A stretch of 64,000 nucleotides of DNA from Candidatus Falkowbacteria bacterium GW2011_GWF2_43_32 (GCA_000999715.1 LCGL01000004.1:44289-108288), one strand, 5' to 3'. Counted from the stretch's first letter, positions 4,075 through 18,453 are shown. A program made the numbers and translations. Notes: generated by a model not told the origin, from the sequence alone.

Positions 4075-4103
4075 TTGACACGTAAACCCTTTTGCGGTAT
4101 AAC
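4075..4103 (+). promoter_or_regulatory. Sigma70-like promoter for the atp operon (TTGACA-17-TATAAC)
   Basis: TTGACA at 4075-4080, 17-nt spacer, TATAAC at 4098-4103, about 45 nt upstream of atpZ. It overlaps a weak hairpin (AGGGTT..AACCCT+TTTT) that may terminate tatD. Confidence 0.4.
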
Positions 4104-4146
4104 TGAGTTGTCTTAATTTTAGAAAGACAGTCGATATTTTGACGAT

Positions 4147-4497
4147 ATGAATTTAGGAAAAATTATTGATCCCAAAAGCGTGAAAACGATGGCTGTCGCG
4201 ACGTTTTATTACGCCAGCGGCGCTATTTTCGGACCTTTATTGCTTTTTGGCGGTTTAGGATATTTGTCGGATAAATGGTTTTCATCCAGCCCGCTGGGAT
4301 TGATTATCGGCGTATTTTTGGCTTTCGTAACGACCAATTTTCTATTATTGAAGAAACTGGGCAAAATTAATCGTTTGATCGCTTCCTACGCCCCGAAACC
4401 GATTGATGAAGTAAAGATCGATCAAGAAAAAGACGATCGTCAGCCGGCGATTGATTCAAGCGCCGCCGATAAGGCTCGCGCCGCCAAACAACAATAA
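4147..4497 (+). CDS. AtpZ/AtpI-like small membrane protein preceding the F-ATPase genes
   Basis: 116 aa, two hydrophobic helices, positioned immediately upstream of atpB as in atpZ/atpI arrangements. Confidence 0.55.
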   Translation: MNLGKIIDPKSVKTMAVATFYYASGAIFGPLLLFGGLGYLSDKWFSSSPLGLIIGVFLAFVTTNFLLLKKLGKINRLIASYAPKPIDEVKIDQEKDDRQPAIDSSAADKARAAKQQ

Positions 4498-4499
4498 AT

Positions 4500-5243
4500 A
4501 TGAGTTTGAATATTTCACTTTCTCCGGAAATTTTATTTTACCTCGGCACTTGGCCGATTTCCAATACTTTTTTTTGGTCTGTTGTCGTAACGGTGTTTTT
4601 GATTATCGGTTCTTTTTTCTTGCGCCGCAGTCTTCGTTTGATTCCCGGCAAGTTTCAGAATATGATAGAAATTTTGGTGGAAGGCGGATATGATTTCGTG
4701 GAAGGCGTCGTCGGCGATAAAACCAAAGCGAAAAGAATTTTTCCTTTGGTGTTTACCATGTTTTTCTTTATTTTTTTCTGTAACTTGCTGGTTTACATTC
4801 CCGGACAGTCGGCCGTCACCATACAAACCGCCGGGGGAGCGGTGCCTTTGTTTCGGGCGATCATTTCCGATTATGGTTTGGTATTCATGATGACGATGAT
4901 TTCCGTGTTGATTACCCAGATCGTCGCGATTGTTGTAGCCGGCCCCTGGAAATATATCGGTAAATTCATCAATCTGAGAAGCCCTCTGAAATGTTTTTTG
5001 GGCATTATGGATTTGATCGGCGAATTGGCGAAAGTGATGTCCCTGTCTTTCCGTTTGTTCGGCAATATTTTCGCCGGTGAAATTTTGGGAGCGGTGATGT
5101 TATTTTTATTCCCGTTTTTTCTGCCTTTGCCGTTTTTGTTTCTGGGACTTTTAACGGCGGTGGTTCAGCCTTTCGTGTTTGCGGTCTTGACTCTGGTTTT
5201 CATTTCCATGGCTTCGGATATTTCCGTTCCGGAAGAAGCTTAA
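4500..5243 (+). CDS. atpB: F0F1 ATP synthase subunit a
   Basis: Polytopic membrane protein with the conserved LSLSFRLFGNIFAGE motif of subunit a (the Arg is essential for proton translocation). Confidence 0.9.
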   Translation: MSLNISLSPEILFYLGTWPISNTFFWSVVVTVFLIIGSFFLRRSLRLIPGKFQNMIEILVEGGYDFVEGVVGDKTKAKRIFPLVFTMFFFIFFCNLLVYIPGQSAVTIQTAGGAVPLFRAIISDYGLVFMMTMISVLITQIVAIVVAGPWKYIGKFINLRSPLKCFLGIMDLIGELAKVMSLSFRLFGNIFAGEILGAVMLFLFPFFLPLPFLFLGLLTAVVQPFVFAVLTLVFISMASDISVPEEA

Positions 5244-5282
5244 AAACTTATCATTTATAAAATTAATTATAATTTAATCTAA

Positions 5283-5516
<234 letters not shown>

Positions 5517-5590
5517 AAAGCGGGGAAGATCCGACTCTTTGCTCCTCGGAGATAAGGGGCGGATTTCTTTGTTTTTTAATTTTCCTTTTT

Positions 5591-6085
5591 ATGACTTTAA
5601 TCAGAGCTTTGGGAATCGACGGTAGAATTCTTTTGGCCCAATTTTTTAATTTTGCGGTTTTGGCTTTTGTTCTCTGGCGTTTTGCTTATCGCCCGCTTTT
5701 TAATATGTTGGAAGAACGGCGTCGCAAAGTCGCGCAAGGAGTGGAGGACGCCGAAGCCGCCACCAAAAAATTAGTGGCCGCCACCGACGAAAGTCGGGGA
5801 TTGGTAACGGGCGCCAAAAAAGAAGCGGCGCTGATCGTGGAAGAAGCCAAAAAACAAGCCGAGATTCGATATAAGGAAATAATCAATAAGTCGCGGGAAG
5901 ATATCGGCGTGATTATCAACGAAGAAAGAGAAAAAATGAGAATTGAAAAAGCCGAAACTTTGCGGGCGATTAAAAATGAAATCGCCGGCTTGGTCGTTTT
6001 ATCCGTAGAAAAAGTTTTGGGAGAAAAAATTGATGCCGTCAAAGATCAGGAATTGATTGAACGGACGGTTAAAAAATTAAAATAA
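5591..6085 (+). CDS. atpF: F0F1 ATP synthase subunit b
   Basis: N-terminal TM helix followed by a long charged coiled-coil. Position between atpE and atpH. Confidence 0.8.
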   Translation: MTLIRALGIDGRILLAQFFNFAVLAFVLWRFAYRPLFNMLEERRRKVAQGVEDAEAATKKLVAATDESRGLVTGAKKEAALIVEEAKKQAEIRYKEIINKSREDIGVIINEEREKMRIEKAETLRAIKNEIAGLVVLSVEKVLGEKIDAVKDQELIERTVKKLK

Positions 6086-6487
6086 ATGAAAGCCAGCGAT
6101 AAACAATATGCGCGCGCACTTTTTGACTTGACGCAAAATCAAAAGGGCGCGGAGTTGAATAAAACGATTAAAGATTTCGCTCGTCTTTTGCTTAAGCACA
6201 ATCGGGCCGTCAGTTTGAATCGCATCATCGATCGTTTTCAAAATATTTGGAATCAGGAAAATTCCGTGGTGAAGGCGGAAATAATCAGCGCGCATAAGTT
6301 GAACGATAAGACGAAGGAATTTTTAGACGAACACATTAAAAAATTGGCTCAGGCCAAAGAAGTGGCCGTCGACAGCAAGGTGGATCCCGGCATTTTAGGC
6401 GGCTTGATAATAAAATACGGCGACCGTATCATTGACGCCGGCTTTAAATCCAAATTGCGGTCGTTGAAGCAAAGTATTCAAAATTAA
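6086..6487 (+). CDS. atpH: F0F1 ATP synthase subunit delta (OSCP), unusually short (133 aa)
   Basis: Position between b and alpha. OSCP-like helical N-terminus. Short relative to the usual ~175-180 aa. Confidence 0.7.
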
Positions 6488-6504
6488 TTAATATTTACAA
6501 GCAT

Positions 6505-8043
6505 ATGTCCAGTCACGCCAAGGATTTCATCGTGGAACAATTAAAAAAACAGATTCAAGATTTGGAATTTGATAATCAGGAACGCTCTTTCGGCAAAGTC
6601 ATCGAAGTCGGCGACGGTATCGCCAAAGTTTCCGGATTGTCGGAAGCGATGATGTCGGAAATGTTGGAATTCAAGACCGAACGGGGATCCGTTTACGGCG
6701 TGGTGTTGAATTTAAACGAGGACAGCGTCGGCGCCATCGTTTTGGGCGATTCCAGTTGGATTAAGGAAGCCGATGAAGTGATGGCGACAAAAAGAATTTT
6801 GGAGGTTCCGGTCGGCGAAGATTTGATCGGCCGGGTGGTCAATCCTTTAGGGGCGGTTTTGGACGGCAAAGAAGAATTGAAATCCGATAAACATTATCCG
6901 ATTGAAAAAATCGCTCCGGGCGTTATTACCCGCGAATCGGTGAAACAGCCGGTTCAGACCGGTATTAAGGCCGTTGATGCCATGATTCCGATCGGCCGCG
7001 GACAAAGAGAATTGATTATCGGCGATCGCCAGATCGGCAAAACCGCTATCGCCATCGATACGATTATCAATCAAGCCGGACAGAAAATGAAATGCGTTTA
7101 TGTGGCTATCGGACAAAAAGAATCCAAGGTGGCCAATATTGTGGCTAAATTGGAACAATCCGGCGCCATGAAATATACTATTGTCGTTGTCGCCGGGGCG
7201 AGCGATCCGGCTTCCATGTTATATATCGCGCCTTATGCCGGGACGGCGATGGCGGAATACTTTTTGGATCAAGGCGAGGACGTGCTGGTCGTTTATGATG
7301 ATTTGTCCAAGCACGCCGTATCTTATCGCGAGATTTCTTTATTGTTGAAACGTCCGCCGGGCCGCGAAGCGTATCCGGGCGACGTCTTTTATTTGCATTC
7401 CCGTTTATTGGAAAGATCTTGCAAGCTGAACAAAGATTTTGGCGGCGGGTCAATCACTTCCTTGCCGATTATCGAAACGCAAGCCGGCGATGTGGCCGCT
7501 TATATTCCGACCAATGTCATTTCTATCACCGACGGACAGATTTATTTGGAACCGGATTTGTTTTATCAAGGCAATCGTCCGGCCGTCAATGTCGGTATTT
7601 CCGTTTCCCGTGTCGGTTCGGCCGCTCAGATCAAGGCGATGAAGAAAGTGGCCGGAAAAATTAAGTTGGAAGCGGCGCAGTATAGAGAATTGGCGGCTTT
7701 TGCCCAGTTCGGTTCCGATTTGGATGAAGCGACCAAAAAGCAATTGGAAAGAGGCAAGCGCTTATTTGAAATTTTCAAACAAGATCAGTACGCTCCGGTG
7801 GCCGTTGAAGACCAGGTGTTGATTTATTACGCGGTTTCCAACGGGTATATGGATGACGTGCCGGTAGAACGGATTAAAGATTTTGAACTCGCTCTTTTGA
7901 ATTATGCTCATGACAATGCCCGGGCGACTTTGGACAGGGTAAAAAAGAGCGGTCAGTTGGAAGAAAAAGATGAAAGCGATTTCCAGCAAGCCATTCAAGG
8001 CTGTAAAGATATTTTAGATTATTTGATCAAGAAAAATGATTAA
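6505..8043 (+). CDS. atpA: F0F1 ATP synthase subunit alpha
   Basis: Walker [10 protein letters not shown]. Alpha-subunit signature motifs. 512 aa. Confidence 0.95.
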
Positions 8044-8986
8044 TGCCAAAGAGATAAAAAAAAGAATAAAATCCGTTTCCAACACCAAAAAAATTACCAA
8101 AGCGATGGAGATGGTGGCGGCCGCCAAAATGCGCCGCGCCGTGGAAGCGGTGTTAAAAACCAGAACTTATGCCAATTTGAGTTGGATGACGATTTTGAAT
8201 ATCGCCCGTTCTCTCAATTCCGGCTCCGAGCGACATCCCTTGCTGACGCCGCGCCCGGAAAATAAAAGAACGGCCATTGTTCTGGTCTCTTCCAATCGCG
8301 GTTTATGCGGCGGATTCAATACCGCGCTTATTTCCAAAGCGATAAAATCGCTTAAAAAATACGATTCGGAGACGGATTTTATAGTCATCGGGAAAAAGGG
8401 CTTGGCGGTGCAAAATCGTTTCGGCTATAATGTCGTCGCCGAGTTTCCGAAAGCCGACGTGTTGTCCGATTCAACGGCGGTTTCCCCCATAGCTTCCATG
8501 ATCATCAAGGAATTTTTAAGCGGCCGTTATGATAAAGTCTTGTTGGCTTACAGCGATTTCGTCAATGCCGTTAAACAAGTGCCGCGCATCAAACAGCTTT
8601 TGCCCGTTGACATCGATTCCGAGGATGAATATTTGGGAGCGATCGGCACCAGCGAAAAGTTGGCGACCAGCAAGGAAATGATCAAACAGAAAGAAGAAAA
8701 ATATTTACAAACCGGAAAAAACAAATTTATTTTCACCTACGAACCGGAAGCGGAAGAAGTGTTGGAGGCGATGGTGCCGCGCTTGGTGGAAGTGCAAATT
8801 TTTCAGGCTCTTTTGGAATCCAATGCTTCCGAACACAGCGCCCGGATGGCGGCCATGCATCAAGCGACCGATGCCGCCGGAGACCTGGTTGACGAGTTGA
8901 CGCTTTTTTATAACAAAGCCAGACAAGCCAGCATTACCGCGGAAATTTCCGAAATCAGCGCCGGTGTTTTGAGTTTGAGCAGTTAA
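8036..8986 (+). CDS. atpG: F0F1 ATP synthase subunit gamma
   Basis: Conserved N-terminus ([29 protein letters not shown]) and C-terminal helix. Overlaps the atpA stop by 8 nt. Confidence 0.9.
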
Positions 8987-8998
8987 TAATTTTGCTAA

Positions 8999-10393
<1,395 letters not shown>

Positions 10394-10401: not shown

Positions 10402-10848
10402 TTGTTTATGTCGCAAAAGATTATCACATTTGAAATCGTCACGCCGGAAAGAGTTGTTTTCCGAGAGGAAATCAGACAGATAACCGTGCCGACGACCAGC
10501 GGCGAAGTCACTATTTTGCCGGAGCATATTCCTTTGGTTTCCATCTTGAAGCCGGGCGTGTTGGAAATCAAAAAGTCCGACGATACCTGGGAAATTATTT
10601 CAGTATCCGGCGGATTTTTGGAGGTGCTGCGGGACAAAATTGTTATTTTAGCGGATACGGCGGAAAGAGCGGTGGAATTGGATGAACAGAGAATTGAGGA
10701 GGCTAGAGCCAGAGCCGAGGAAGCCAAGAAGAATGCGATTAATGTTGATCAAATGGAATTTGCCCGTATTGCCGCTCAATTGGAGAAAGAATTGGCGCGG
10801 ACGCGCGCTTTGAATCGTTGGCGGAAGATTAAAGGTTTTTCCAAGTAA
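10402..10848 (+). CDS. atpC: F0F1 ATP synthase subunit epsilon
   Basis: N-terminal beta-sandwich (IVTPERVVF..) plus C-terminal helical hairpin. Last gene of the operon. Confidence 0.85.
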   Translation: MFMSQKIITFEIVTPERVVFREEIRQITVPTTSGEVTILPEHIPLVSILKPGVLEIKKSDDTWEIISVSGGFLEVLRDKIVILADTAERAVELDEQRIEEARARAEEAKKNAINVDQMEFARIAAQLEKELARTRALNRWRKIKGFSK

Positions 10849-10878
10849 GAGGTATTCAAGTGATATTTTTAAAATAAA

Positions 10879-10906
10879 AGCCTCGGCCTATCGGTCGGGG
10901 TTTTTG
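10879..10906 (+). terminator. Probable intrinsic terminator of the atp operon
   Basis: Short GC stem (cggcc/ggtcg with one G-U pair) followed by GGGTTTTT, directly after the atpC stop. Confidence 0.4.
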
Positions 10907-11183
10907 GTATTTGGAATCGGATTTTGATTTACGGGATTTACCAAGGATTTTTGATATTTTTAAGGCGGAAACTCGTCATTATTCATACTTTGTTGTTTAT
11001 TGGTCCTGTTGCATAAGCGAATAAAAGGAGATAAAATAAGATTATCCGAGTATTGACGCTTGATTCGAGAATTACGCGATATATTCGTATAATAGTCAAT
11101 AATTTGTATATATTGCGTATTTATGACGTATAAAAATGAGTTAGCTGAAATTTTGTCTGCCTAATCAATAATCCAATATTAAT

Positions 11184-11630
11184 ATGCCTGAAAAAGAACG
11201 ATTTAAACCGTACGCCGCCGCCTATCTCGTCTTAATAAAAGATGGGCAAGTTTTGCTCATGAAAAGAGCCAACACTGGCTATCAGGATGGAAATTACGGG
11301 TTAGTATCTGGCCATTTTGATGGCGGAGAAACAGCAAAACAATGTATAATTCGTGAATCAAGGGAGGAGGCTGGAATTACTGTTTTTCCGGAAGATCTTG
11401 AAGTTGTTCATGTTGTGCATCGTTTTAGACCGGCTAGGGAATATTTTGATATTTATCTTCGTGCAGAAAAATGGTCTGGTGAAATAAAAAACATGGAACA
11501 AGATAAATGTGATGAGTTTGGGTGGTTTAAAATTGACGATCTTCCGGAAAATGCGATTCCCGAATTAAAACTTGCCCTTGAAAATATTAGAAACAACGTG
11601 CATTATGGAGAGCTTGGTTGGGCGGCTTAG
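11184..11630 (+). CDS. Nudix hydrolase (island cassette 1)
   Basis: Nudix box GHFDGGETAKQCIIRESREEAGI (Gx5Ex7REUxEExGU). Confidence 0.85.
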   Translation: MPEKERFKPYAAAYLVLIKDGQVLLMKRANTGYQDGNYGLVSGHFDGGETAKQCIIRESREEAGITVFPEDLEVVHVVHRFRPAREYFDIYLRAEKWSGEIKNMEQDKCDEFGWFKIDDLPENAIPELKLALENIRNNVHYGELGWAA

Positions 11631-11664
11631 TGATATTAAAAATGTCGGCAGACAAAGCATCAGA

Positions 11665-11760
11665 TAACACGGTATATACAAAATTTTCTTTCGCTTCGCT
11701 TCAAAAAACTTCGTATGATACCGATACGTTGTACGCCATACACTTCGGCGCGCGGGTTAA
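11665..11760. repeat. Island intergenic repeat: imperfect palindrome with arms CAGATAACACGGTATATAC ... GTATGATACCGATACGTTGTAC around a CTTTCGCTTCGCTTC-AAAAAACTTC box
   Basis: The reverse complement of the right arm matches the left arm at most positions. The central box recurs at 13540-13560 and 16860-16875. Confidence 0.55.
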
Positions 11761-11774
11761 ATAAAGTTCACGAT

Positions 11775-12236
11775 ATGAACATTGAGGATTTGAAAAATAC
11801 AGTCAAAGATATAGTCGCCAAGGCTGATATTTTGAAAAGTAAAATTGTAAAAGAGCCAGTTCCAGTAAATTACGCATGTATTTTCTGCCAAAGTAAGGAA
11901 GAATATACGTCGTTTCTTGAAACAACAAAGCAAATCGGAACCGTAGTCCAAGAAACAAAAGCTGGCCCTGTATTTCAAATTGCTTCTTTGCCCACGATTG
12001 CAGGGAATTTGCAGCTACTTAAGATACGCAAGCCTGATCCAACACGGCCTGAACGTGGAGACGCTGATTTTACTCTCTTAAACTATGAAGAATTTAAAAA
12101 AGAGCATCTTTCACAACCAGGGTTTAGTCTCATTCAAAAGGAGCAACTCGAAATGATAGAGTATATGGAGCCAGATAGTTCTATTAGAGTGTATTTTTCA
12201 AATCCTCCATTAGATAAACAGTTGGGGATTATTTAA
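11775..12236 (+). CDS. Hypothetical protein (island cassette 2)
   Basis: ORF with no recognisable motif. Start placed at MNIEDL. The track ORF begins at 11715 but that extension runs through the intergenic repeat. Confidence 0.5.
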   Translation: MNIEDLKNTVKDIVAKADILKSKIVKEPVPVNYACIFCQSKEEYTSFLETTKQIGTVVQETKAGPVFQIASLPTIAGNLQLLKIRKPDPTRPERGDADFTLLNYEEFKKEHLSQPGFSLIQKEQLEMIEYMEPDSSIRVYFSNPPLDKQLGII

Positions 12237-12243
12237 GAGGCGC

Positions 12244-12290
12244 CTCGTGTACAGCGCACAACACCGGATATCCGATTCGTGAGCTAAGTA
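12244..12290. repeat. Island intergenic repeat copy (CACAACACCGGATATCCG box)
   Basis: Shares the AACAC-N3-ATATCCG core with copies at 13349, 16435 and 16915. Confidence 0.5.
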
Positions 12291-12302
12291 AAATTATTTT
12301 TT

Positions 12303-12761
12303 ATGCCCGACCACCAAAATAAACTGATCGCTGAAACTTCTTCCGAATTGTCTGCCGTGCTCAAGTTGTTACGCAGACATAGAGCTGATATTAAAAATAG
12401 CTATAAAGAAAAAAGGGGTGAGCGTCAGATATTAAGCCGTGAAGAGAGACGAGTAATACTAAATAAAACAGCTCGGCGCTGTCATATCTGTGGCGGTAAA
12501 ATTGAAGGAAACAAATTTGACGCTGATCATGTTATGGCGCATAGCAGCGGCGGCAAACATAACATTGATAATTATTTACCAGCTCATTCATTGTGCAATA
12601 ACTATCGATGGGATTATCTTGCAGAAGAGTTTCAGCTTATATTAAAAATAGGGGTTTGGTGCAGAACATTGATTGAGCATAATAAAACAACATTAGACCA
12701 AAAGATTGCCAAGAGTTTCATCGAATATGAAAAGAGTAGGTTAAAAAGAAGAAAAAAATAA
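12303..12761 (+). CDS. HNH endonuclease domain protein (island cassette 3)
   Basis: CHICGGK...DADHVMAHSSGG...NIDNY..HSLCNNYR: CxxC, DH, N and H of the HNH/His-Me finger. Confidence 0.8.
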   Translation: MPDHQNKLIAETSSELSAVLKLLRRHRADIKNSYKEKRGERQILSREERRVILNKTARRCHICGGKIEGNKFDADHVMAHSSGGKHNIDNYLPAHSLCNNYRWDYLAEEFQLILKIGVWCRTLIEHNKTTLDQKIAKSFIEYEKSRLKRRKK

Positions 12762-12779
12762 TTTTACTTATCTCGCTCA

Positions 12780-12895
12780 TTCAAATTGCTTGTCCGCTTA
12801 GGCGTTGGGTAGCGCTCCATTCCACTACGCGCTACAATTATACCGCCACGCGAACTGCGCAACTTCGAATATCCGCAAACGTTAGATGAAATAAT
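12780..12895. repeat. Island intergenic repeat copy (GTAGCGC..GCGCTAC inner palindrome; GAATATCCGCAAACGTTAGAT right arm)
   Basis: Contains the TTATCTCGCT and CACTACGCGCTAC boxes shared with 16870-16900. The right arm ends in GTTAGAT, a perfect GTTRRRY match. Confidence 0.5.
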
Positions 12896-12907
12896 AATCC
12901 ACCTAAT

Positions 12908-13327
12908 ATGAATAAAGAAACCAGTTTTAAAAAAATCTTGTATTCTAAATTGAATGCGAGACAACAAGAAAATTATAATTACCAAAAAGCGTCGGCAATT
13001 CTAGCTGACTATGGATTCAACACGCTTCGACTTTCGGATGACTGGCAGGGGGCTGATTTCATCGCAATACATATTAATGGTAAAGATTTTTTAAAAGTAC
13101 AACTTAAGGGTCGCCTCACATTTGAAAAAAAGTATATTGGTAGAGATATTTGGATTTGCTTTTCTTATCAAGACAACTGGTTTCTTTATCCGCACGATAT
13201 GCTACTTCAAATATTTGGAGATAAAATGAATTTCATCAATACGAAATCATGGACTGAAAAGGGTGGGTATAGCTGGAATCATTTAAATAAAAATCAAATT
13301 TTAGTTATCTCCAAATATAAGATTTAA
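12908..13327 (+). CDS. Hypothetical protein, possible PD-(D/E)xK nuclease fold (island cassette 4)
   Basis: GADFIAIHINGKDFLKVQLKG resembles a D...(E/Q)xK catalytic core. The assignment is weak. Confidence 0.45.
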   Translation: MNKETSFKKILYSKLNARQQENYNYQKASAILADYGFNTLRLSDDWQGADFIAIHINGKDFLKVQLKGRLTFEKKYIGRDIWICFSYQDNWFLYPHDMLLQIFGDKMNFINTKSWTEKGGYSWNHLNKNQILVISKYKI

Positions 13328-13344
13328 AGCCAGTGGATTATTAC

Positions 13345-13448
13345 ATCAGCTAACACGACATATCCGCAAGGGCGAAAGCCACATTTTGCCACTCTATTAA
13401 AAAAAATAAGGATGTGGCGAAACGTCGGATATGCCGTAACGTTATTTG
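13345..13448. repeat. Island intergenic repeat: nested imperfect palindrome (attC-like architecture)
   Basis: Outer arms CTAACACGACATATCCG and CGGATATGCCGTAACGTTAT are reverse complements with a few mismatches. Inner arms AGCCACAT and ATGTGGCG flank an A-rich centre. Confidence 0.6.
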
Positions 13449-13525
13449 AAATATTCCTTTTTTTTGGCTATCGTTCAATTGTTGTAAAAAATTTTAAAAT
13501 TTCTTTTTTATTAATTAAAGAGGGG

Positions 13526-13580
13526 TATATAGTGTTTTCTCCGCTACGCTACAAAAACTTCTTTTATCCCTGATGTTCTG
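13526..13580. repeat. Island intergenic repeat copy in reverse orientation (GGGTATATAGTGTT + CTCCGCTACGCTAC-AAAAACTTC + TTTTATCCCTGATGT)
   Basis: Reverse complement of the ACATCAGG...AACAC..TATATAC box, with the same central box as 11692-11725. Confidence 0.5.
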
Positions 13581-13585
13581 CAAAA

Positions 13586-14065
13586 TTGAAACTTTTACAA
13601 CTTTTCTTTTTTAATATGAAACAGACTTATTCTATCGGAGCATTTGCGATTATCCTTGATGACCAAGATCGTGTTTTGCTTTGTCATAGAAATGATTACG
13701 ATCTTTGGAATCTCCCTGGCGGAGGAGTGGAATTTAATGAGGCGCCGTGGGAATGCGTCGTTCGTGAAGTTAAGGAGGAAATCGGCCTTGATGTTGAAGT
13801 TGAGCGTCTTGCTGGCGTGTACAGTAAGCGCAACCAAGATGAGTTAGTTTTTTCTTTTGTTTGTAGGGTTGTTGGTGGAAAAATGACGCTCACAAATGAA
13901 GCCGACCAAATTGAGTATTTCCCAATCGAGGAGATTCCAAAGAATACGTCGCCTAAGCAAAGTGAGAGAATAAAGGATGTTCTTGCCGATAAAGGCAAAA
14001 CGCTAGCTATGAGAGTTCAAGAAGGTCCGTCATCAATAAGTTTGATAAAGGAGGGAAAGTTGTAA
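13586..14065 (+). CDS. Nudix hydrolase (island cassette 5)
   Basis: Nudix box GGGVEFNEAPWECVVREVKEEIGL. Alternative start at 13616. Confidence 0.8.
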   Translation: MKLLQLFFFNMKQTYSIGAFAIILDDQDRVLLCHRNDYDLWNLPGGGVEFNEAPWECVVREVKEEIGLDVEVERLAGVYSKRNQDELVFSFVCRVVGGKMTLTNEADQIEYFPIEEIPKNTSPKQSERIKDVLADKGKTLAMRVQEGPSSISLIKEGKL

Positions 14066-14130
14066 AAAATTTCAGTATCGCATACTCGGATATGTTATGT
14101 GAAATAAAGTTTTATTTTTAACTATAGTCT

Positions 14131-14544
14131 ATGGCTTATTTCAATAAAATCGGTTTGCTGTATCTTAATGACGATCAGTCAAAGTTTTTAGTGTGTGAAA
14201 AAGATAATTTTACTTCTGATTTCATTATGCCCGGCGGGCAAGTGGATGATGGCGAGAATAATGAAGAATGCCTCGTACGTGAAATTAAAGAAGAGCTCGA
14301 TGTAGATATGGATAAGACAAGCCTCATATTTATCAAGGAGTATGTAGATGTGGCGGCCGGTGACCCGACAAAAGACGTTTCTATAAAGTTGTACGAAGGT
14401 AAAATTATTGGCGAGCCTAAACCGTCTGCTGAAATAATCAAGTTTCACTGGGTTGGTAAGGACGACTTGTTTCATCCGCGACTTTCCCCGATTGTCAAGA
14501 ATAGAATTTTGCCTGATCTTATCGCAAAAAAAATACTAAAATAA
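14131..14544 (+). CDS. Nudix hydrolase (island cassette 6)
   Basis: Nudix box PGGQVDDGENNEECLVREIKEELDV. Confidence 0.8.
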   Translation: MAYFNKIGLLYLNDDQSKFLVCEKDNFTSDFIMPGGQVDDGENNEECLVREIKEELDVDMDKTSLIFIKEYVDVAAGDPTKDVSIKLYEGKIIGEPKPSAEIIKFHWVGKDDLFHPRLSPIVKNRILPDLIAKKILK

Positions 14545-14552
14545 AATTTTAC

Positions 14553-14578
14553 ATCGCAGAACACGGTATGGCTAATTA
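14553..14578. repeat. Island intergenic repeat, short copy (ACATCGCAGAACACGGTATGGCTAAT)
   Basis: Matches the ACATCAG-N-TAACACGGYATAT box. Lies 9 nt upstream of the next start codon. Confidence 0.5.
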
Positions 14579-14586
14579 CGACCTTT

Positions 14587-15207
14587 ATGCAAATACCAGC
14601 CAATATTTCGCTAAAACAAGAAGGGCAATATTGTATTCATTGTTTTTCGCAAAAAGTCGAAAAAACTGATCGGGATGGCTTAACATATTATCATTGTCAT
14701 TCGTGCGGCCAGATTGCAGAAAGAAGCTTGGTTATCGATAATAGTATTGTTTGGTGGATAGATAAAAAAACCAATGAGTATTGGCATGAGAGTGTGGGTA
14801 TTTTTGTTTTTAATTTTGAAAATAAAGCTCTTTTTTTCGAAAGGACCATTTATCCTTTCGCCTTTACTATTCCGGCAGGGCATCTTGACGTCGGAGAAAT
14901 TGCAGACGTCGCCGTAAAGCGAGAGTTGAAAGAAGAAACAAAAATTGAATCTGATAATGTTAAACTTTTTTCGACAGAAGATGTGAGCGGAGACAAATGT
15001 CGTCGCGGAGCCGATCATCATAAATGGCATCTTTATGTAGCTCAAATTGAAAATATCGGTAACATCAAAATAAACGACGAAGGAATAAAGCCCGTTTGGC
15101 TCACTTTTGATGAGGCGTTGGGAAAAAAATTGGTGTATCCGGTCCGATATTTTATTGAAAAATACGGAGAAAAACTGTTGAAATCGGCGCAAATAGTAGA
15201 AATATAA
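14587..15207 (+). CDS. Nudix hydrolase with N-terminal zinc ribbon (island cassette 7)
   Basis: CIHC...CHSCG zinc ribbon followed by Nudix box PAGHLDVGEIADVAVKRELKEETKI. This resembles the NudC-type domain order. Confidence 0.8.
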   Translation: MQIPANISLKQEGQYCIHCFSQKVEKTDRDGLTYYHCHSCGQIAERSLVIDNSIVWWIDKKTNEYWHESVGIFVFNFENKALFFERTIYPFAFTIPAGHLDVGEIADVAVKRELKEETKIESDNVKLFSTEDVSGDKCRRGADHHKWHLYVAQIENIGNIKINDEGIKPVWLTFDEALGKKLVYPVRYFIEKYGEKLLKSAQIVEI

Positions 15208-15288
15208 GAGGAAAATTGTTTGTACCAAAAAATTAAAAAAGGAGTTTTAGGCTCGAGCATTGACGCTCTTATATTTTCTGACCTTAAT

Positions 15289-15343
15289 TTGTTCCGATTT
15301 CTTTAATATGGTATACTGTAAATAATCAGCTAAACCATATTAA
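15289..15343 (+). promoter_or_regulatory. Candidate promoter (TTGTTC-17-TGgTATACT, extended -10) overlapped by a perfect 10-bp inverted repeat TTAATATGGT/ACCATATTAA, upstream of the fic gene
   Basis: -35 at 15289-15294. TG-extended -10 at 15309-15317. Inverted-repeat arms at 15303-15312 and 15334-15343 with a 21-nt spacer. Confidence 0.45.
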
Positions 15344-15352
15344 ATATTTTCT

Positions 15353-16318
15353 ATGACATATCTACCATCTATCATAAAAAATCGTCTGGAAGAAAAATTG
15401 TCTAAACTTAACAAACTTCGTCCCCTGCCCAAATCAGCGGTACAAAAACTTCGTGAAAAATTCCAGATAGAGATGACCTTCAATTCAAACGCCATAGAGG
15501 GCAACTCTTTAACTTTAAAAGAGACCTTTTTGGTTATTAATGAAGGCATAACTGTAAAGGGGAAACCCTTGAAAGACCACCTGGAAGCCAAAGATCATCA
15601 CGCCGCTTTGGAATATTTATACGAGTTAATAGATAAAGACAAAAGACACACTATTTCGGAAATGCTTATACGAAATTTGCATAAAATTATTATACAGGAA
15701 ACCGATAAGGATTGGGCCGGCCGATACAGAAATGCCAATGTAACTATAGGGGGAGCAAAACACACGCCGCCAGATGCGTTGCAAGCGCCACAAAAGATGC
15801 GAGATTTAATCAGTTGGTTGAATTTACAAAAAGGCAAGACTAATATCGTTGAATTGGCCGCCTTATTACATCACAAATTAGTGCATATCCATCCCTTTTT
15901 TGACGGCAACGGCAGAACGGCACGACTCACAATGAATTTACTGCTTATGCAGGCGGGCTATCCGTTGGTTATTATTATGAAAAATGACCGCAAGAAATAT
16001 TATGATGTATTGGATAAAGCGGATAGCGGTAAACTCGAACCTCTAATAAAATTTATTGCTCAATCTATAGAGCGCTCACTTGATATTTATCTAAAAACTT
16101 TGACTCCCTCAACCACCAAGCAAGAAAAATTTGTATCGCTTGCTGAAATATCCAAGACTATTAATTGTTCTGCCAAATACTTAAATCTGCTCGCCAGACA
16201 AGGAAAACTGGAAGCATACAAAGAAGGCAGGGATTGGTTGACATCGAAAGAAGCTGTTGAACGATATTTTAAAAACCGAACAAGACAAAGAAAAAGTTCA
16301 AAAAAGAAAGTTATATAG
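15353..16318 (+). CDS. Fic/Doc-family protein (AMP-transferase-type motif) with C-terminal excisionase/MerR-like HTH (island cassette 8)
   Basis: Canonical Fic motif HIHPFFDGNGRTARL. C-terminal LAEISKTINCSAKYLNLLARQGKLEAYKEGRDWLTSKEAVERYF matches the HTH_17/excisionase-type DNA-binding pattern. Confidence 0.85.
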   Translation: MTYLPSIIKNRLEEKLSKLNKLRPLPKSAVQKLREKFQIEMTFNSNAIEGNSLTLKETFLVINEGITVKGKPLKDHLEAKDHHAALEYLYELIDKDKRHTISEMLIRNLHKIIIQETDKDWAGRYRNANVTIGGAKHTPPDALQAPQKMRDLISWLNLQKGKTNIVELAALLHHKLVHIHPFFDGNGRTARLTMNLLLMQAGYPLVIIMKNDRKKYYDVLDKADSGKLEPLIKFIAQSIERSLDIYLKTLTPSTTKQEKFVSLAEISKTINCSAKYLNLLARQGKLEAYKEGRDWLTSKEAVERYFKNRTRQRKSSKKKVI

Positions 16319-16429
16319 GAGTTTTGGTCCTGGGGCATTTTTCCCCAGCTCATCTGCTCCTACGCCCAGACAAAAATAAAATTTGTTCATTAAGAAAAGT
16401 ATTTGACTATCGTCGGAAAAAAGAAAAGC

Positions 16430-16512
16430 ATACATCATATAACACGGCATATCCGGTTACGGCGTTTATACAAAAGCCGTAATCAGGCATGCCGAAACGT
16501 TATGCGCCGCCA
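16430..16512. repeat. Island intergenic repeat: nested imperfect palindrome (attC-like architecture)
   Basis: ATATAACACGGCATATCCGG | TTACGGCG-TTTATACAAAA-GCCGTAA | TCAGGCATGCCGAAACGTTATGC. Outer and inner arms are each reverse-complementary pairs. The right end GTTATGC lies 60 nt before the next ATG. Confidence 0.6.
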
Positions 16513-16568
16513 AAAGGATGCACTTGGCTTGCGAATATTTATAAACAAGAATAATAAACAACAACATT

Positions 16569-16835
16569 ATGGAAAATAATCATTTCAAAGATGCGGTTAA
16601 ATCACACAAACTGCTTGCGCAAGAAAGAACCATTCTTGCCAATGAGCGTAATACTCTCGCGTATATAAGAACGGGGTTTTCTTCATTTGTTCTCGGTATT
16701 GCAGTCATTAAATTATTTGAGAACGACGGTTTTTTGCTATATGCTGGATGGATAGCTGTCGTGATGGGAATATTATTTATTATTCTGGGGCTAGTTTATT
16801 ATCCAATACGGAAAAAGAAGATTAAGTCATATTAG
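16569..16835 (+). CDS. DUF202/YidH-family small membrane protein (island cassette 9)
   Basis: TILANERNTLAYIRTG motif typical of DUF202, followed by two TM helices. Confidence 0.7.
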   Translation: MENNHFKDAVKSHKLLAQERTILANERNTLAYIRTGFSSFVLGIAVIKLFENDGFLLYAGWIAVVMGILFIILGLVYYPIRKKKIKSY

Positions 16836-16845
16836 ATTGTGTCCT

Positions 16846-16945
16846 CCTGAAACTCACTCCGCTTCGCTCCGACTACGCCACGCTTTTATCTCGCTGCGTT
16901 ACGCTTCAGTCGAGTCGTATAACAAGGCATATCCCGGACAAGAAC
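16846..16945. repeat. Island intergenic repeat copy (CACTCCGCTTCGCTCCGACTACGCCACGC + TTTTATCTCGCTGCG + GTATAACAAGGCATATCCCGG)
   Basis: Combines all three recurring boxes of the family. Confidence 0.55.
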
Positions 16946-17008
16946 TACCAAACAAGGGGTCGAGTAAGAATTGAAACATTCACTAGCAGTTAATTAATTA
17001 AAATTATT

Positions 17009-17332
17009 ATGAAATTAGGAATAATTATCAGTCAAATAAATCCGGAAACAAATTGGAACGCTTTGCGTTTAGCGAATTTTGCTCTCAAACAAGGCGACGA
17101 AGTTAAAATTTTTCTCATTGGCGAAGGCGTAGAGTATGAAACGGGCAGTTCGGAAAAATTTAACCTCCAAGAACAAATAGCGGAATTTTTAAAATCTGAA
17201 AATGCTAAAATTTTGGCGTGCGGCACTTGTTTAAAATCGAGAAATCAAGAAGCGACCGATAGCTGCCCGCTGAGCACCATGAAAGATCTATATGCGCTCG
17301 TACAAGAAAGCGATAAAATTTTAACTTTTTAA
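17009..17332 (+). CDS. DsrE/DsrF/TusD-like protein
   Basis: 107 aa, fold and length typical of the DsrE/DsrF-like family (conserved Cys in ACGTCLKS). Confidence 0.55.
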   Translation: MKLGIIISQINPETNWNALRLANFALKQGDEVKIFLIGEGVEYETGSSEKFNLQEQIAEFLKSENAKILACGTCLKSRNQEATDSCPLSTMKDLYALVQESDKILTF

Positions 17333-17344
17333 TGAAATAATTTT

Positions 17345-17563
17345 ATGATGTATTATAATTTTGCGCCTTTTGGCTGGATTTTCATGATTTTTTTCTGGGT
17401 TTTGGCGATTGCCGGAATCATTGTTTTGATAAAATGGCTAGTCGGCCAAAATAAGACTGAAAGCGGAAAAAATAATATCGCCTTAGATATTCTCAAAGAG
17501 AGATATGCAAAAGGCGATATTAATAAAAAAGAGTTTGGAGAAAAAAAGAGAGATTTGGAATAA
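17345..17563 (+). CDS. SHOCT-domain small membrane protein
   Basis: One TM helix then [25 protein letters not shown], the SHOCT (short C-terminal) domain pattern. Confidence 0.6.
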
Positions 17564-17616
17564 GATATTTTGAGCTTCGGGTATTTTGTTTAGAAAATCA
17601 AGTCAAATGTGAGATA

Positions 17617-18453
17617 TTAAAATCTCAGCCAGATCATCACGATTAAGGCCAAAGCCATCCGATACCAGCCGAAAAAAGTGAAATTATGTTTTTGGATGAA
17701 ATTCAAGAAGAAGCGGATGCTGATAATGGCCGTAATGAAGGACATAACGAAGCCGATGGCCCAGACTGTCAAATCTTGGCCGACTAACAAGCCGAGCGTC
17801 GCTCGGCTTTTATATAAATCCAGGCCGGTGGCGGCTATCATGGTGGGGATGGCTAACAAAAAAGAAAATTCTACAATATTTTTACGGCCGATGCCGAGGG
17901 CCAATCCGCCGATGATGGTGGCGGCGGACCGGGAAACGCCCGGAATAATCGCCAAAGCTTGAAAAAAGCCGATGCCGGCGGCTTGTTTATAAGAGACATT
18001 CATTTCCAGTCCCCGTCCCTTGTCTTCCTTTTCTTTTTCGTTATTTTCTTCCTCGGCCGATAATATTTCGGCTGTTTGTTTTCGGGAATAATATTTTTCA
18101 AAAATAATCAGAACTAAGCCGCCGACGAAGAGCGAGCCGGCGATAACGTAATTATTGTCCAGCAGATAATTTTTGACGATTTTATAAAATATCAAACCGA
18201 TTAACGCGGTCGGCAAAAAGGCGGCGCCGATTTTGCCGAACAGTTCCCAAGAGTGCCAAATTTTTTTCCAATACAAAACCACCACCGCCAGAATCGCTCC
18301 GAGCTGGATGGAGATCGTGAAGGTTTTGAAAAACTCGGAAGAAGGGAGTCTGAGCCATTCTCCGGCCAAAATCAAATGAGCCGTGGAAGAAATCGGCAGA
18401 AATTCGCTTAAACCCTCTATCAGGCCCAAAATCAAACCATGAAATACAGTCAT
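17617..18453 (-). CDS. uppP: Undecaprenyl-diphosphate phosphatase
   Basis: N-terminus GLILGLIEGLSEFLPISSTAHLIL and PGVSRSAATIIGG motif of the BacA/UppP family. Eight TM segments. Confidence 0.85.
   Translation of the reverse strand: MTVFHGLILGLIEGLSEFLPISSTAHLILAGEWLRLPSSEFFKTFTISIQLGAILAVVVLYWKKIWHSWELFGKIGAAFLPTALIGLIFYKIVKNYLLDNNYVIAGSLFVGGLVLIIFEKYYSRKQTAEILSAEEENNEKEKEDKGRGLEMNVSYKQAAGIGFFQALAIIPGVSRSAATIIGGLALGIGRKNIVEFSFLLAIPTMIAATGLDLYKSRATLGLLVGQDLTVWAIGFVMSFITAIISIRFFLNFIQKHNFTFFGWYRMALALIVMIWLRF

Follow-up and report, generated by a model that had tools for sequence, protein, structure and literature searches.

An attI-like site and gene cassettes without a nearby integrase in a Patescibacteria genome: evidence for a decayed integron of a putative CPR type

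In the genome of Candidatus Falkowbacteria bacterium GW2011_GWF2_43_32, a member of the Patescibacteria (CPR), the region between atpC and bacA probably represents the cassette array of a chromosomal integron whose integrase is absent nearby. The array would consist of an attI site and about ten cassettes, and we assign this reading, drawn from sequence comparison, a probability of roughly 85%. The island appears to be an integron of a CPR-type variant that is in decay and without its integrase, because the recombinases of related loci resemble IntI/XerA without the IntI-specific domain and the sites are devoid of canonical extrahelical bases. A preliminary description of this DNA had favoured integron cassettes or a CALIN without intI, and this is supported by co-oriented attC-like hairpins, GTT boundaries, a recurring cassette, and the presence of a recombinase and attI in relatives. 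Its alternative of a 'lineage-specific gene-capture system' is partly right, given a recombinase without the IntI-specific domain and unpaired site features that differ from canonical attC.

The island between atpC and bacA

The analysed stretch of DNA, here called the window, is 64 kb long. In its atpC–bacA gap, about 11 small genes were called as ORFs on one strand, and together with the Pfam assignments they agree with the genes listed previously. The island is also AT-richer, as had been proposed, with a GC content of 0.37-0.38 at 11-17 kb versus ~0.44-0.48 across most of the window. A hairpin with a T-run can be read from the sequence 3' of atpC (~10880-10905), and an Rfam scan of the window returned tRNAs only. 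The features are as follows; bit scores refer to the covariance model R2, which is described in the next section.

10408-10848, +, atpC: left conserved flank (Pfam ATP-synt_DE_N; synteny with 64 relatives)
10849-11083, no strand, spacer at the place expected for the integrase; recombinase remnant undetectable
11084-11146, +, attI-like site: repeat TTCGTATAATA at 11084-11094, ACGTATAAAAATGA at 11126-11139, putative crossover GTT at 11140
11141-11728, +, cassette 1: Nudix gene 11184-11630 (Pfam NUDIX) and attC1 11658-11739 (49.1 bits, E 2e-9); ends complementary over 22 nt
11729-12279, +, cassette 2: gene 11775-12236, no match in a family search including Pfam, and short attC2 ~12251-12290; ends complementary over ~85 nt (score 28 versus a shuffle mean of 3.8 and maximum of 9)
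12280-12881, +, cassette 3: HNH nuclease gene 12303-12761 (Pfam HNH) and divergent attC3 ~12765-12892, which folds as a hairpin and scores with its right half alone (10.5 bits); inverted repeat I2, 22 nt at 95%
12882-13441, +, cassette 4: gene 12908-13327, no family match, and attC4 13344-13452 (55.5 bits, E 6e-11); inverted repeat I7, 22 nt, self-complementarity score 10 versus at most 4 for non-self
13442-14094, +, cassette 5: leader 13448-13558, Nudix gene 13616-14065 (Pfam NUDIX) and short attC5 ~14066-14105
14095-16499, +, three-gene block with a single intact site at its end: Nudix 14131-14544, Zn-ribbon Nudix 14587-15207, Fic-HTH 15353-16318 (Pfam); the cassette ends of the first gene are complementary (inverted repeat I5)
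14552-14586, +, attC6 left-half remnant (12.4 bits, E 1.5)
16433-16510, +, attC8, closing the three-gene block (52.4 bits, E 4e-10)
16500-16991, +, cassette 9: DUF202 gene 16569-16835 (Pfam DUF202) and attC9 remnant, left half 16914-16936, with left-half motif matches, a possible GTT at 16991 and no hairpin on folding
16992-17616, +, DsrE-like gene 17009-17332 and SHOCT-like gene 17345-17563 in the variable atpC–bacA gap
17617-18453, -, bacA (uppP): right conserved flank (Pfam BacA)

The gene list and the extent given in the preliminary description require correction. The fourth gene had been labelled 'PD-(D/E)xK-like', and it has no match in Pfam, NCBIfam or PADLOC. The island had been ended at 17010, and we place its right edge at ~17616, because the DsrE-like and SHOCT-like genes lie in the variable gap and elsewhere an array contains a DsrE homologue as one of its cassettes. 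Both genes are probably the last cassette or cassettes of the island; an attC site is absent downstream of them, and none of the 64 relatives compared has a DsrE or SHOCT match in the atpC–bacA gap.

In most of these relatives, atpC and bacA are separated by 60 bp to 1 kb. The island region is missing at the locus in 62 of the 64 and differs in the closest relative. In that closest other species (L003), the same locus contains a similar attI remnant and different cassettes, and a DUF202 homologue (67%) adjoins bacA. This comparison bears on one alternative, namely that the small genes form an ordinary run passed on by vertical descent, with hairpins that are terminators or REP-like repeats and with no mobile cassettes. 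Such a run would agree with the fixed gene order within the strain population and with a promoter and terminator scan that is indistinguishable from shuffles, but it is already contradicted by the locus comparison and by the recurrence of cassettes: homologues of cassette 1 and of the DsrE-like gene are cassettes in other arrays. The GC content is also below that of the surroundings, and the island hairpins lack T-runs. We therefore give it hardly any credence.

The junction repeats are attC-like hairpins

The repeats at the gene junctions have the form …nnTAAC-A-CGGCATATCCGG…CGGATATGCCG-AAAC-GTTRnnY-GAAAT and are attC-like imperfect hairpins. The pattern TAACACGGCATATCC, allowing up to 3 mismatches, has 5 matches in the window, all within 11665-16934, versus 1.5 expected, and the direct and inverted repeat families of the window are concordant. 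The repeat family is thus real and, within the window, restricted to the island.

Searching metagenomes with a pattern taken from the left halves of the window sites placed the family on at least 118 contigs. The full element was present at 94 of 122 occurrences, yielding 86 unique sites of 63-179 nt among the matches listed. The covariance model R2 was built from metagenome sites alone, with no window site included. On the 118 metagenome loci listed it gave 264 matches at E ≤0.01, single contigs carrying as many as 12 sites in the same orientation, and on 1 Mb of atpC-region loci from relatives it gave zero. In the window, R2 recognized 13344-13452, 16433-16510 and 11658-11739, all on the + strand with E 6e-11 to 2e-9; the remainder of the window gave no significant match. 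The preliminary description had placed a repeat at nearly every junction. The family itself stands, while the roughly eight window sites divide into three strong ones, two short ones (~30-40 nt), one divergent and two left halves, and the junction between the Zn-ribbon Nudix and Fic-HTH genes has none. That only three of the ~8 window sites reach significance with R2 counts against the integron reading.

The structure of the family is supported by covariation. Across 36 sites, 89% of cells are paired, versus 23-42% with a slid partner, and pair 21-99 shows compensatory change (CG 19, AU 13). The L stem of 12 bp is 94% paired and covarying, which provides the canonical L''/L' hairpin feature, and the bottom strand is the more stable one in 82 of the 86 sites. 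In nearly all sites the arms are 20-140 nt apart, and each array keeps one orientation. The family consensus is CAnnTAAC and GTT[A/G][T/G/A][G/A/C][C/T], with AAC and GTT invariant. It conforms partially to canonical R'' RYYYAAC and R' GTTRRRY, as the fifth R' position is T in 47 of the 86 sites. A conserved bulge corresponding to the canonical extrahelical bases on the bottom-strand L'' arm is absent, which also counts against the integron reading; 18 of 72 sites have an additional G in the top-strand L' arm. The R/L box spacers show a constant asymmetry of 1 nt versus 4 nt, forming a 1 x 4 nt internal loop (A versus AAAC/ATAC).

Cassette boundaries and mobility

Within each cassette, the ~22 nt at the start and the ~22 nt at the end are complementary to each other, which locates the crossover at or beside G|TT. 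In the window, the start of a cassette pairs better with the end of that cassette than with any other, and among 53 cassettes from 15 arrays the mean self score was 11.1 versus 6.1 for non-self (Mann-Whitney p = 1.6e-19). At these ends, the R-box stem is extended by a cassette-specific 12-25 nt, once ~85 nt, with a conserved 2 x 2 mismatch. Such long self-complementary ends give a fresh hint as to the making or folding of cassettes.

Cassette 1 recurs in another array (L137) with 74% DNA identity from the GTT onward, preceded there by another gene and attC, and its terminal stem contains a compensatory change. Likewise, a DsrE homologue (61%) lies 3' of an attC in L086, ~1 kb from the recombinase of that locus, and the conserved non-coding leader of cassette 5 shares 71-84% identity with post-attC segments in at least 10 other arrays. 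By these comparisons, the cassettes appear to be independently mobile units bounded at a GTT core site.

Paired ends around single genes could also suggest that each gene is a small transposable unit with terminal inverted repeats (GTTAnnTGAAAT... / ...ACATCAnnTAAC), moved by some transposase. The inverted repeats of 22-27 nt, once ~85 nt, and the conserved outer cores would suit such units, but the window encodes no transposase and no target-site duplications were seen. In addition, the units are always co-oriented and always parted by the L-box hairpin, and the arrays begin at an attI beside a tyrosine recombinase. We regard such elements as highly improbable.

According to the preliminary description, a conserved gene order in related genomes would speak against cassettes, and the outcome is mixed. 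All 9-11 contigs from the same strain population that span a given part of the array share one gene order, which argues against cassettes and provides no evidence for current activity, whereas the different cassettes of L003 at the same locus argue for them. The window array is a sedentary one in partial decay, with three intact sites, five that are short, divergent or halved, and an order fixed in the strain population.

The attI-like site and the missing integrase

The spacer before the first gene is attI-like and not an attC. Its motif is common to 13 complete loci, the window and L003, where it is degenerate. In the window it stands in the same register as in the recombinase-bearing loci, where the motif lies between the recombinase and the first cassette and is clearest in ~9 of 13. 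The head of the array thus appears to carry an attI, its function being assigned by homology. A TCGAGA-17-TATAAT match (11065-11093), the candidate for a Pc promoter of the array, falls inside attI, and promoter-like matches are no commoner than in shuffles.

The recombinase genes of complete loci start at a distance of ~100-125 nt from the GTT. As had been stated before, the window contains no intI-like gene: no tyrosine recombinase was found by Pfam (20 mid-size ORFs), phmmer (all ORFs of at least 80 aa) or tblastn. With 11 array-linked recombinases as queries, tblastn on the window gave a best E no better than 0.1 and no pseudogene remnant. The lack of an intI adjacent to the array counts against a complete integron. 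With three sites at E ≤2e-9 and five degenerate ones within 5.4 kb, called by our own model R2 and not by the attC model of IntegronFinder, the island would qualify as a CALIN, that is, at least two attC sites close together with no integrase nearby.

The recombinase of related loci

A tyrosine recombinase of ~270 aa is encoded divergently from the array, behind the conserved attI, in 12 of the 13 loci that contain both enzyme and array. It adjoins the array in L067, L069, L073, L075, L078, L085, L086, L100, L147, L149, L186 and L187; L185 has the attI and no R2 match. IntI1 matched 15 ORFs in 14 of the scanned loci (the reference itself scored 799 bits on PRK15417); NCBIfam scoring covered ten of these ORFs and the alignment eleven. 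The array-linked recombinases reach E 1e-36 to 1e-49 against IntI1 and 1e-25 to 1e-31 against XerD; their best solved relatives are IntI4 (2A3V, 8e-45) and archaeal XerA (5e-43), with XerD at 5e-24. The catalytic R, K, HxxR, H and Y motifs are present. In all 11 aligned recombinases, ~35-45 residues are missing at the IntI-specific additional domain (I2 helix, near patch III). The best 120 homologues listed are mostly ~270 aa long (range 242-295). The missing domain counts against the integron reading, as do two further observations: the integron-integrase model TIGR02249 is matched in two pieces with 201-239 bits, under the cut-off of 265, and Cury et al. (2016) judged such recombinases near attC sites in complete genomes not to be IntI.

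These properties favour, to some degree, an array of Xer-type modules, in which a housekeeping Xer-like recombinase would act on double-stranded dif-like sites in the manner of pdif or IMEX and no integron mechanism is involved. Besides lacking the IntI insertion, the array-linked enzymes mostly pass the XerA model NF040815 and belong to a very large family (at least 6856 clusters). Smyshlyaev et al. assigned the candidate-phyla recombinases related to Xer to a subgroup, 'Cand', that is regarded as Xer-like. The shortest sites, such as that of L090 (63 nt), have 12-nt inverted arms around ~8 nt and resemble a classical core site. Most sites, in contrast, have 40-140 nt between arms, paired and covarying, and therefore fit a hairpin and not a 28-bp duplex site. 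Neither the ~28-bp duplex with a 6-8 bp central region nor the alternating orientation of Xer/dif-pdif sites is found in the CPR sites; each array has a single orientation, a distinct attI adjoins the recombinase gene, and the L185 locus lies 6 kb from dnaA and not at the terminus. Xer-type modules thus seem an unlikely explanation.

Comparison with known systems

One close counterpart of the proposed integron is the CALIN or sedentary chromosomal integron (Cury et al. 2016; Neron et al. 2022), such as the Vibrio superintegron with its VCR sites. Shared features are the co-oriented, mostly single-gene cassettes, imperfect hairpins bounded by ...AAC and GTT... with the boundary at or beside G|TT, a homogeneous lineage-specific attC family, and a window copy without integrase nearby. 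As in sedentary integrons, complete relatives of the window array combine a divergent integrase with an attI that contains direct repeats, and the window cassettes code for Nudix, HNH, Fic and small unknown proteins. Different from classical integrons, the CPR-linked recombinase lacks the I2 domain, the 1 x 4 nt loop takes the place of conserved extrahelical bases, and the R-box stem carries the long cassette-specific extension and conserved 2 x 2 mismatch. Unlike a CALIN, where attI is dispensable, the window copy keeps it. Archaeal integrons, known from MAGs beyond the classical bacterial phyla in complete, CALIN and In0 forms, reportedly have IntIs with the additional domain (Ghaly et al. 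2022, PMC9668308), which the CPR recombinases do not possess.

In being equally close to XerA and IntI and free of the insertion, the CPR recombinase resembles single-recombinase Xer and IMEX systems (XerA/dif, XerS/difSL, the folded attP of CTX). XerS systems have their site next to the gene for the recombinase, and phage CTX integrates as a folded single-strand hairpin that is resolved by replication. Xer systems nevertheless use a single site per chromosome, located at the terminus, and lack arrays of dozens of hairpins in one orientation, and IMEX elements are phages or islands and not single-gene cassettes. Acinetobacter pdif modules likewise place discrete genes between recombinase sites and use a Xer-type enzyme without the IntI domain, but their sites are 28-bp duplexes in alternating orientation on plasmids, while those of CPR are 63-179 nt hairpins in one orientation behind attI.

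Proposed mechanism and implications

We propose that a cassette consists of a small gene (in some cases more than one) with an attC-like imperfect hairpin behind it, and that cassettes entered singly at the attI GTT (11140). For insertion, a circular cassette would recombine site-specifically with attI through its folded attC, which presumably folds as a single strand in vivo, and cleavage would probably occur at or beside G|TT. The likely catalyst is the ~270-aa IntI/XerA-like tyrosine recombinase encoded divergently beside attI in related contigs. As it is missing from at least 64 kb here, it would either have been deleted or act in trans on the window array from elsewhere in the genome.

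Our literature searches found no description of a CPR-type integron variant and no integron report for Patescibacteria. It is an even bet, in our estimate, that CPR carry their own very widespread integron class, with a ~270-aa I2-less IntI/XerA-like recombinase, an attI and hairpin arrays of up to a dozen or more cassettes, a 1 x 4 loop replacing the extrahelical bases and long cassette-specific terminal stems, of which the window island would be one decayed copy. Integrons are defined operationally by the unique extra domain of their integrase, which is thought to enable reading of the folded single-stranded attC. This I2 domain is held to be both defining and necessary for attC recombination, and the CPR loci show full integron architecture without it. 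If correct, they would represent a living Xer–IntI intermediate or an independent route to single-gene capture, and pipelines that depend on intI_Cterm would systematically overlook such integrons or call them CALIN. If the system is functional, the origin of IntI from Xer-like enzymes could be tested directly on a natural I2-less enzyme together with its sites, and present integron censuses would undercount a large share of bacterial diversity. It would also provide a means by which accessory genes could turn over in CPR, a lineage with very small genomes that are believed to rely strongly on gaining and losing genes.

With regard to cassette content, the Fic protein of the window (15353-16318) matches SoFic and PDC-S04 in PADLOC. 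Related arrays also carry restriction-modification and OLD-type defence genes as cassettes.

Extent of the insertion between atpC and bacA

The DNA between atpC and bacA is an integron cassette array with an attI site and without an integrase, i.e. a CALIN in IntegronFinder terms. It contains eleven small open reading frames (ORFs), all on the plus strand, and its GC content is 0.37-0.38 at 11-17 kb versus approx. 0.44-0.48 across most of the window. The preliminary description had recognized an island by its same-strand small genes, lower GC content and repeat family; these features are real, and the repeats are limited to the island. Its gene list also agrees with the Pfam assignments, but its right edge at 17010 has to be moved, because the genes for DsrE and a SHOCT-like protein lie inside the insertion as well. 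The corrected edges are 10849 and approx. 17616.

Genes of the island (g1-g9 in order) and its flanks, in window coordinates
10408-10848, atpC, left flank
11184-11630, plus strand, g1, Nudix (Pfam)
11775-12236, plus strand, g2, no Pfam match
12303-12761, plus strand, g3, HNH (Pfam)
12908-13327, plus strand, g4, no Pfam match
13616-14065, plus strand, g5, Nudix (Pfam)
14131-14544, plus strand, g6, Nudix (Pfam)
14587-15207, plus strand, g7, Zn-ribbon Nudix (Pfam)
15353-16318, plus strand, g8, Fic plus HTH (Pfam)
16569-16835, plus strand, g9, DUF202 (Pfam)
17009-17332, plus strand, DsrE
17345-17563, plus strand, SHOCT-like ORF
17617-18453, minus strand, bacA, right flank

A search with AtpC identified 64 related loci, and the labels of nearly all of them name Patescibacteria or CPR lineages. 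In 28 of these, bacA is located downstream of atpC in the orientation of the window: it is directly adjacent (approx. 60-200 bp) in seven (L013, L024, L030, L031, L033, L034, L038), separated by one conserved gene of approx. 270 aa in nine, and by other short content in the rest. These short gaps indicate that the 6.8-kb content, DsrE and SHOCT genes included, is an insertion at a variable spot. A conserved gene encoding approx. 256-282 aa follows atpC in L004, L006, L007, L010, L011, L012, L018, L019, L028 and L029; it precedes bacA in most of them and GroES in L019 and L029, and is absent from the window and from L003, in which the array takes its place. The DsrE protein maps to contig DNKM01000003.1 of the metagenome-assembled genome GCA_003489845.1.

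The locus of the closest species, L003 (AtpC 83% identical), carries a different low-GC insert of 1.7 kb, in which a 187-aa gene and a MazG-like gene are accompanied by one recognizable attC-like site and by a DUF202 homologue (67%) that abuts bacA. Within the strain population, gene order is constant in 9-11 contigs from several groundwater and other metagenomes, each covering part or all of the array. Thus, the variation expected of a cassette array is seen in the other cassettes of L003, but not in the strain population, where the partly decayed array is fixed as far as sampled.

No tyrosine recombinase was detected by Pfam among 20 mid-size ORFs elsewhere in the window, all of which are housekeeping genes, or by phmmer with IntI1 and XerD against all window ORFs of at least 80 aa, in agreement with the earlier reading that the window lacks an intI-like gene. 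Rfam returned three tRNAs and nothing else from the window, and a scan of the window for promoters and terminators gave the same result as shuffled sequences.

attC-like sites at the gene junctions

The motif TAACACGGCATATCC, allowing up to 3 mismatches, has five matches in the window versus 1.5 expected, all within 11665-16934. A repeat finder recovered the same family, together with inverted repeats that bracket single genes. On the plus strand, an intact junction consists of the gene, a short cassette-specific stretch, (A)CATCAnnTAAC, one A, CGGCATATCCGG, a variable segment, CGGATATGCCG, then AAAC or ATAC, and finally GTTRnnYGAAAT. Integron attC sites have the same layout: the boxes R'' (ending in AAC) and L'', a variable terminal structure, and the boxes L' and R' (starting with GTT).

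attC-like sites of the island, in window coordinates
attC1, 11658-11739, plus strand, complete; imperfect hairpin on both strands
attC2, approx. 12251-12290, 30-40 nt only
attC3, approx. 12765-12892, folds, divergent
attC4, 13344-13452, plus strand, complete; imperfect hairpin on both strands
attC5, approx. 14066-14105, 30-40 nt only
attC6, 14552-14586, left half only
attC8, 16433-16510, plus strand, complete; imperfect hairpin on both strands
attC9, 16914-16936, left half only

There is no site at the g7/g8 junction. The repeat family proposed earlier is therefore real, but its presence after nearly every gene was too generous a statement, with three sites complete and one junction without any. 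The predicted folding of the spacers is borne out by the imperfect hairpins of attC1, attC4 and attC8, and attC3 folds as well, in divergent form.

Cassette boundaries

Each R' GTT is directly followed by sequence that is reverse-complementary to the stretch directly before the next R'' AAC. Each gene is thus bracketed by its own inverted repeat, composed of a conserved 12-nt core and 10-15 cassette-specific nt. The ends of cassette 1 are GTTAGCTGAAATTTTGTCTGCC and GGCAGACAAAGCATCAGATAAC, those of cassette 3 are complementary to 95% over 22 nt, and those of cassettes 4 and 6 are likewise complementary. When all starts were compared with all ends, the self pair was best for cassettes 1, 2, 3, 4 and 6; after removal of the core, their self scores were 10, 5, 12, 10 and 11, respectively, versus at most 9 for non-self pairs. 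From these self-paired ends, the crossover maps to the interval from L' to the fourth base of R', at or beside G|TT. Hall and Stokes reportedly defined integron cassettes by the same boundary argument.

In cassette 2, the ends (11728-11812 and 12180-12262) are reverse-complementary over approx. 85 nt (score 28; shuffle mean 3.8, maximum 9), and this terminal inverted repeat takes in the first 12 and the last 17 codons of g2. For a possible single large cassette spanning g5-g8, the comparison of the cassette 5 start with the end before attC8 was not significant (score 37; shuffle mean 27, maximum 44).

The site family in metagenomes

Scanning public metagenome contigs with the pattern CATCAnnTAACACGRYATATMC returned at least 118 contigs, with approx. 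16 chance matches expected by a rough estimate. Of 122 occurrences, 94 could be extended to a right end, and these yielded 86 non-redundant full sites, 63-179 nt long (median 126). All of these sites share AAC and GTT, with GTT-R-K-R-Y-GAAAT as the consensus of R'. In an alignment of 36 short sites, pairing in the R and L stems reaches 89%, versus 23-42% when the 3' partner is slid, and one L-stem pair shows a compensatory change (CG 19, AU 13). Between the R and L boxes, the 5' arm invariably has a single A as spacer and the 3' arm has AAAC or ATAC; L' contains one additional G in a quarter of the sites. Structure prediction gives the bottom strand the higher stability in 82 of the 86 sites. 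A conserved extrahelical base on the L'' side was not found in this set.

The covariance model R2 was built from these 36 metagenome sites only and searched against the window with filters off. It matched the plus strand at 13344-13452 (55.5 bits, E 6e-11), 16433-16510 (52.4 bits, E 4e-10) and 11658-11739 (49.1 bits, E 2e-9), and no further match in the 64 kb was significant, with attC6 and the attC3 right half detected only weakly. An earlier model, R1, built from four window sites, was overfitted, matched only its own training sequences and was discarded. On the 118 metagenome loci, R2 produced 264 matches at E <=0.01, in co-oriented arrays of up to 12 sites spaced approx. 0.5-1.5 kb apart (L130, L184, L176, L098, L075, L090). 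It had no match at E <=0.01 in 1 Mb of atpC-region loci from relatives, and searches of the 64 atpC-region loci with window half-site motifs gave nothing convincing; the L003 site, like the attI of that locus, was seen only by eye and by register alignment.

The boundary rule also applies to these arrays. For 53 cassettes bounded by R2 matches in 15 arrays, the mean self score was 11.1 versus 6.1 for non-self pairs (p = 1.6e-19), and 74% of self scores exceeded the 95th percentile of non-self scores. The terminal extensions contain a conserved 2 x 2 mismatch, GAAAT opposite ACATC.

A recombinase linked to the arrays

Fifteen ORFs in 14 metagenome loci match IntI1. Eleven encode full-length recombinases, with phmmer E values of 1e-36 to 1e-49 against IntI1 and 1e-25 to 1e-31 against XerD. 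All catalytic motifs and the IntI-like N- and C-terminal motifs are present in an alignment with IntI1 and XerD, and the IntI-specific additional domain (I2) of approx. 35-45 residues is absent from 11 of 11. The ten tested match best to NCBIfam NF040815, "site-specific tyrosine recombinase/integron integrase" of the XerA type (200-242 bits, cut-off 220). On the integron integrase model TIGR02249 they score 201-239 bits, below the cut-off of 265 and in two pieces, because the additional domain is missing; the IntI1 reference is validated by its score of 799 bits over the full length of the integron-integrase model PRK15417. Among solved structures, VchIntIA/IntI4 (2A3V; 8e-45, two pieces) and archaeal XerA (5e-43, 6e-41) come closest, and the match to a bacterial XerD structure is far weaker (5e-24). 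The family comprises at least 6856 clusters at E <=1e-30. The top matches listed are mostly of approx. 270 aa, and among the matches listed, every organism-level name more specific than "bacterium" denotes a CPR lineage.

Alternatively, the arrays could be Xer modules of the pdif or IMEX kind, as Xer-related recombinases of candidate phyla were assigned to a Xer-like "Cand" subgroup by Smyshlyaev et al. Such modules are hard to reconcile with hairpins that are long and variable, with sites that all point the same way and with an attI, and we consider this explanation very improbable.

attI and array layout

The recombinase is divergent from the array in 10 of 11 aligned loci and co-oriented in L173; the first detected site lies within approx. 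1 kb in nine of these loci. Three homologues on long contigs (L185, L186, L187) were chosen without regard to repeats. L186 and L187 have R2 sites on the opposite strand beside the recombinase start, while L185 has no R2 match, though a clear attI. The adjoining opposite-strand genes of L185 (6192-9837, 16741-18105) include an HNH protein and an IS200/IS605-type Y1 transposase.

An attI-like motif is located approx. 100-125 nt upstream of the start codon in most of 13 loci, clearest in approx. nine. It consists of TTCGTATAATA, approx. 35 nt, TTCGTATAnAAACGA and then GTTAnnnGAAAT of the first cassette. The window has TTCGTATAATA at 11084-11094, ACGTATAAAAATGA at 11126-11139 and GTT at 11140, in the same register, and L003 carries a degenerate copy. 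Thus, the spacer after atpC is attI, and the expected place of the integrase, 10849-11083, is empty; tblastn of the window and of L003 revealed no integrase pseudogene. That attI is a chromosomal dif site is unlikely; L185 lies 6 kb from dnaA, near the replication origin, but this is a single case. Since the attI remnant is common to the window and L003 and their cassettes differ, either cassettes were turned over after the loss of the integrase, by a trans-acting enzyme, or the losses were independent.

Cassette mobility and comparison with known integrons

Cassette 1 (11140-11679) shares 74% DNA and 73% protein identity with 498-1038 of the metagenome array L137, and homology begins at the G of GTT. 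Upstream of the shared cassette, L137 has a different gene and a full attC, and the window has attI. The terminal stem varies in a compensatory manner (GTCTGCC/GGCAGAC in the window, GTTTGCC/GTCAAAC in L137). In L086, one of the cassettes, approx. 1 kb from the recombinase, is a DsrE homologue (61%). The mechanism adopted here is that of integrons, in which the folded attC of a circular cassette would recombine with attI at G|TT, with the IntI/XerA-like recombinase as the catalyst. The sequences show the site family with its structure, the boundaries, the shared cassettes, the linkage to the recombinase, the attI and the loss of the domain; folding in vivo, the bond that is cleaved, the enzyme responsible and any present-day activity are inferred.

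The integron or CALIN reading of the preliminary description is upheld by the attC-like sites, the GTT boundaries, the shared cassettes, the linked recombinase and attI. In architecture and in function, as deduced here from sequence, the array is an integron or CALIN (Cury et al. 2016; Neron et al. 2022). Two defining molecular features are missing, namely the IntI-specific domain, which Ghaly et al. (PMC9668308) report for archaeal IntIs, and conserved extrahelical bases. For these two reasons, we do not class the linked recombinase as a canonical IntI, nor do we regard the sites as canonical attC; the conclusion of an integron-like mode of action is unaffected. Neither integron arrays of CPR bacteria nor large arrays with I2-less integrases turned up in a literature search conducted mostly outside subscription journals, and the novelty of the CPR arrays is probable rather than certain. 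The island, itself a decayed copy, exposes an apparently CPR-wide integron type with an integrase devoid of the hallmark domain.

Cargo and minor sequence modules

A defence or stress flavour of the cargo is plausible: PADLOC assigns the Nudix cassettes to its candidate family PDC-S07 and the Fic protein to SoFic and PDC-S04, and HNH, restriction-modification, OLD-type and RadC genes are present in related arrays. Nucleotide "house-cleaning" enzymes are strikingly enriched, with four Nudix hydrolases of low mutual similarity in the window (within 11184-15207) and a MazG-like pyrophosphohydrolase in the sister locus L003 (11516-11821). Beside the recombinase and attI of L186, a 6-kb block without an internal R2 site (3769-9729) encodes a RadC-methyltransferase, an AlwI-type restriction enzyme, a methylase and an OLD-family nuclease; this block is a defence cassette of very large size, or else it was inserted into the array. 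An N6-methylase/specificity gene (503-3055) lies past the next sites.

Directly after R' of attC4, approx. 110 non-coding nt at the start of cassette 5 (13448-13558) are 71-84% identical to post-attC segments in at least ten other arrays (L067, L090, L091, L098, L145, L148, L151 and others). This segment, which may be a shared leader or promoter module, holds an A/T-rich promoter-like stretch, a strong Shine-Dalgarno-like AAAGAGGGG and a 13-codon GTG ORF. The 115 nt preceding attC8 (16317-16432) contain a hairpin CTGGGGCATTTTTCCCCAG, an A-rich run and a small GACTATCGTC hairpin, and are 81-88% identical to sequence preceding attC sites in L098, L069, L109, L145 and L149; they look like a 3' module conserved among cassettes, or like a subfamily of extended attC sites. 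The same arrays also contain a second attC type, rich in GC (GGCGGCGCCTG...CAGGCGCCGCC-GTT), on the minus strand of L086 (1120-960, 385-230) and also in L069, L098 and L140, often preceded by an approx. 33-nt "empty cassette" of self-complementary ends only (GTTATGACGCC-loop-GGCGTCATAAC). Just 5' of the Fic-HTH gene, a perfect 11-bp inverted repeat, TTTAATATGGT ... ACCATATTAAA (15302-15345), surrounds an R''-like AATCAGCTAAAC and a -10-like element, TGgTATACT, and may serve the HTH domain as an operator or be the remnant of a site.
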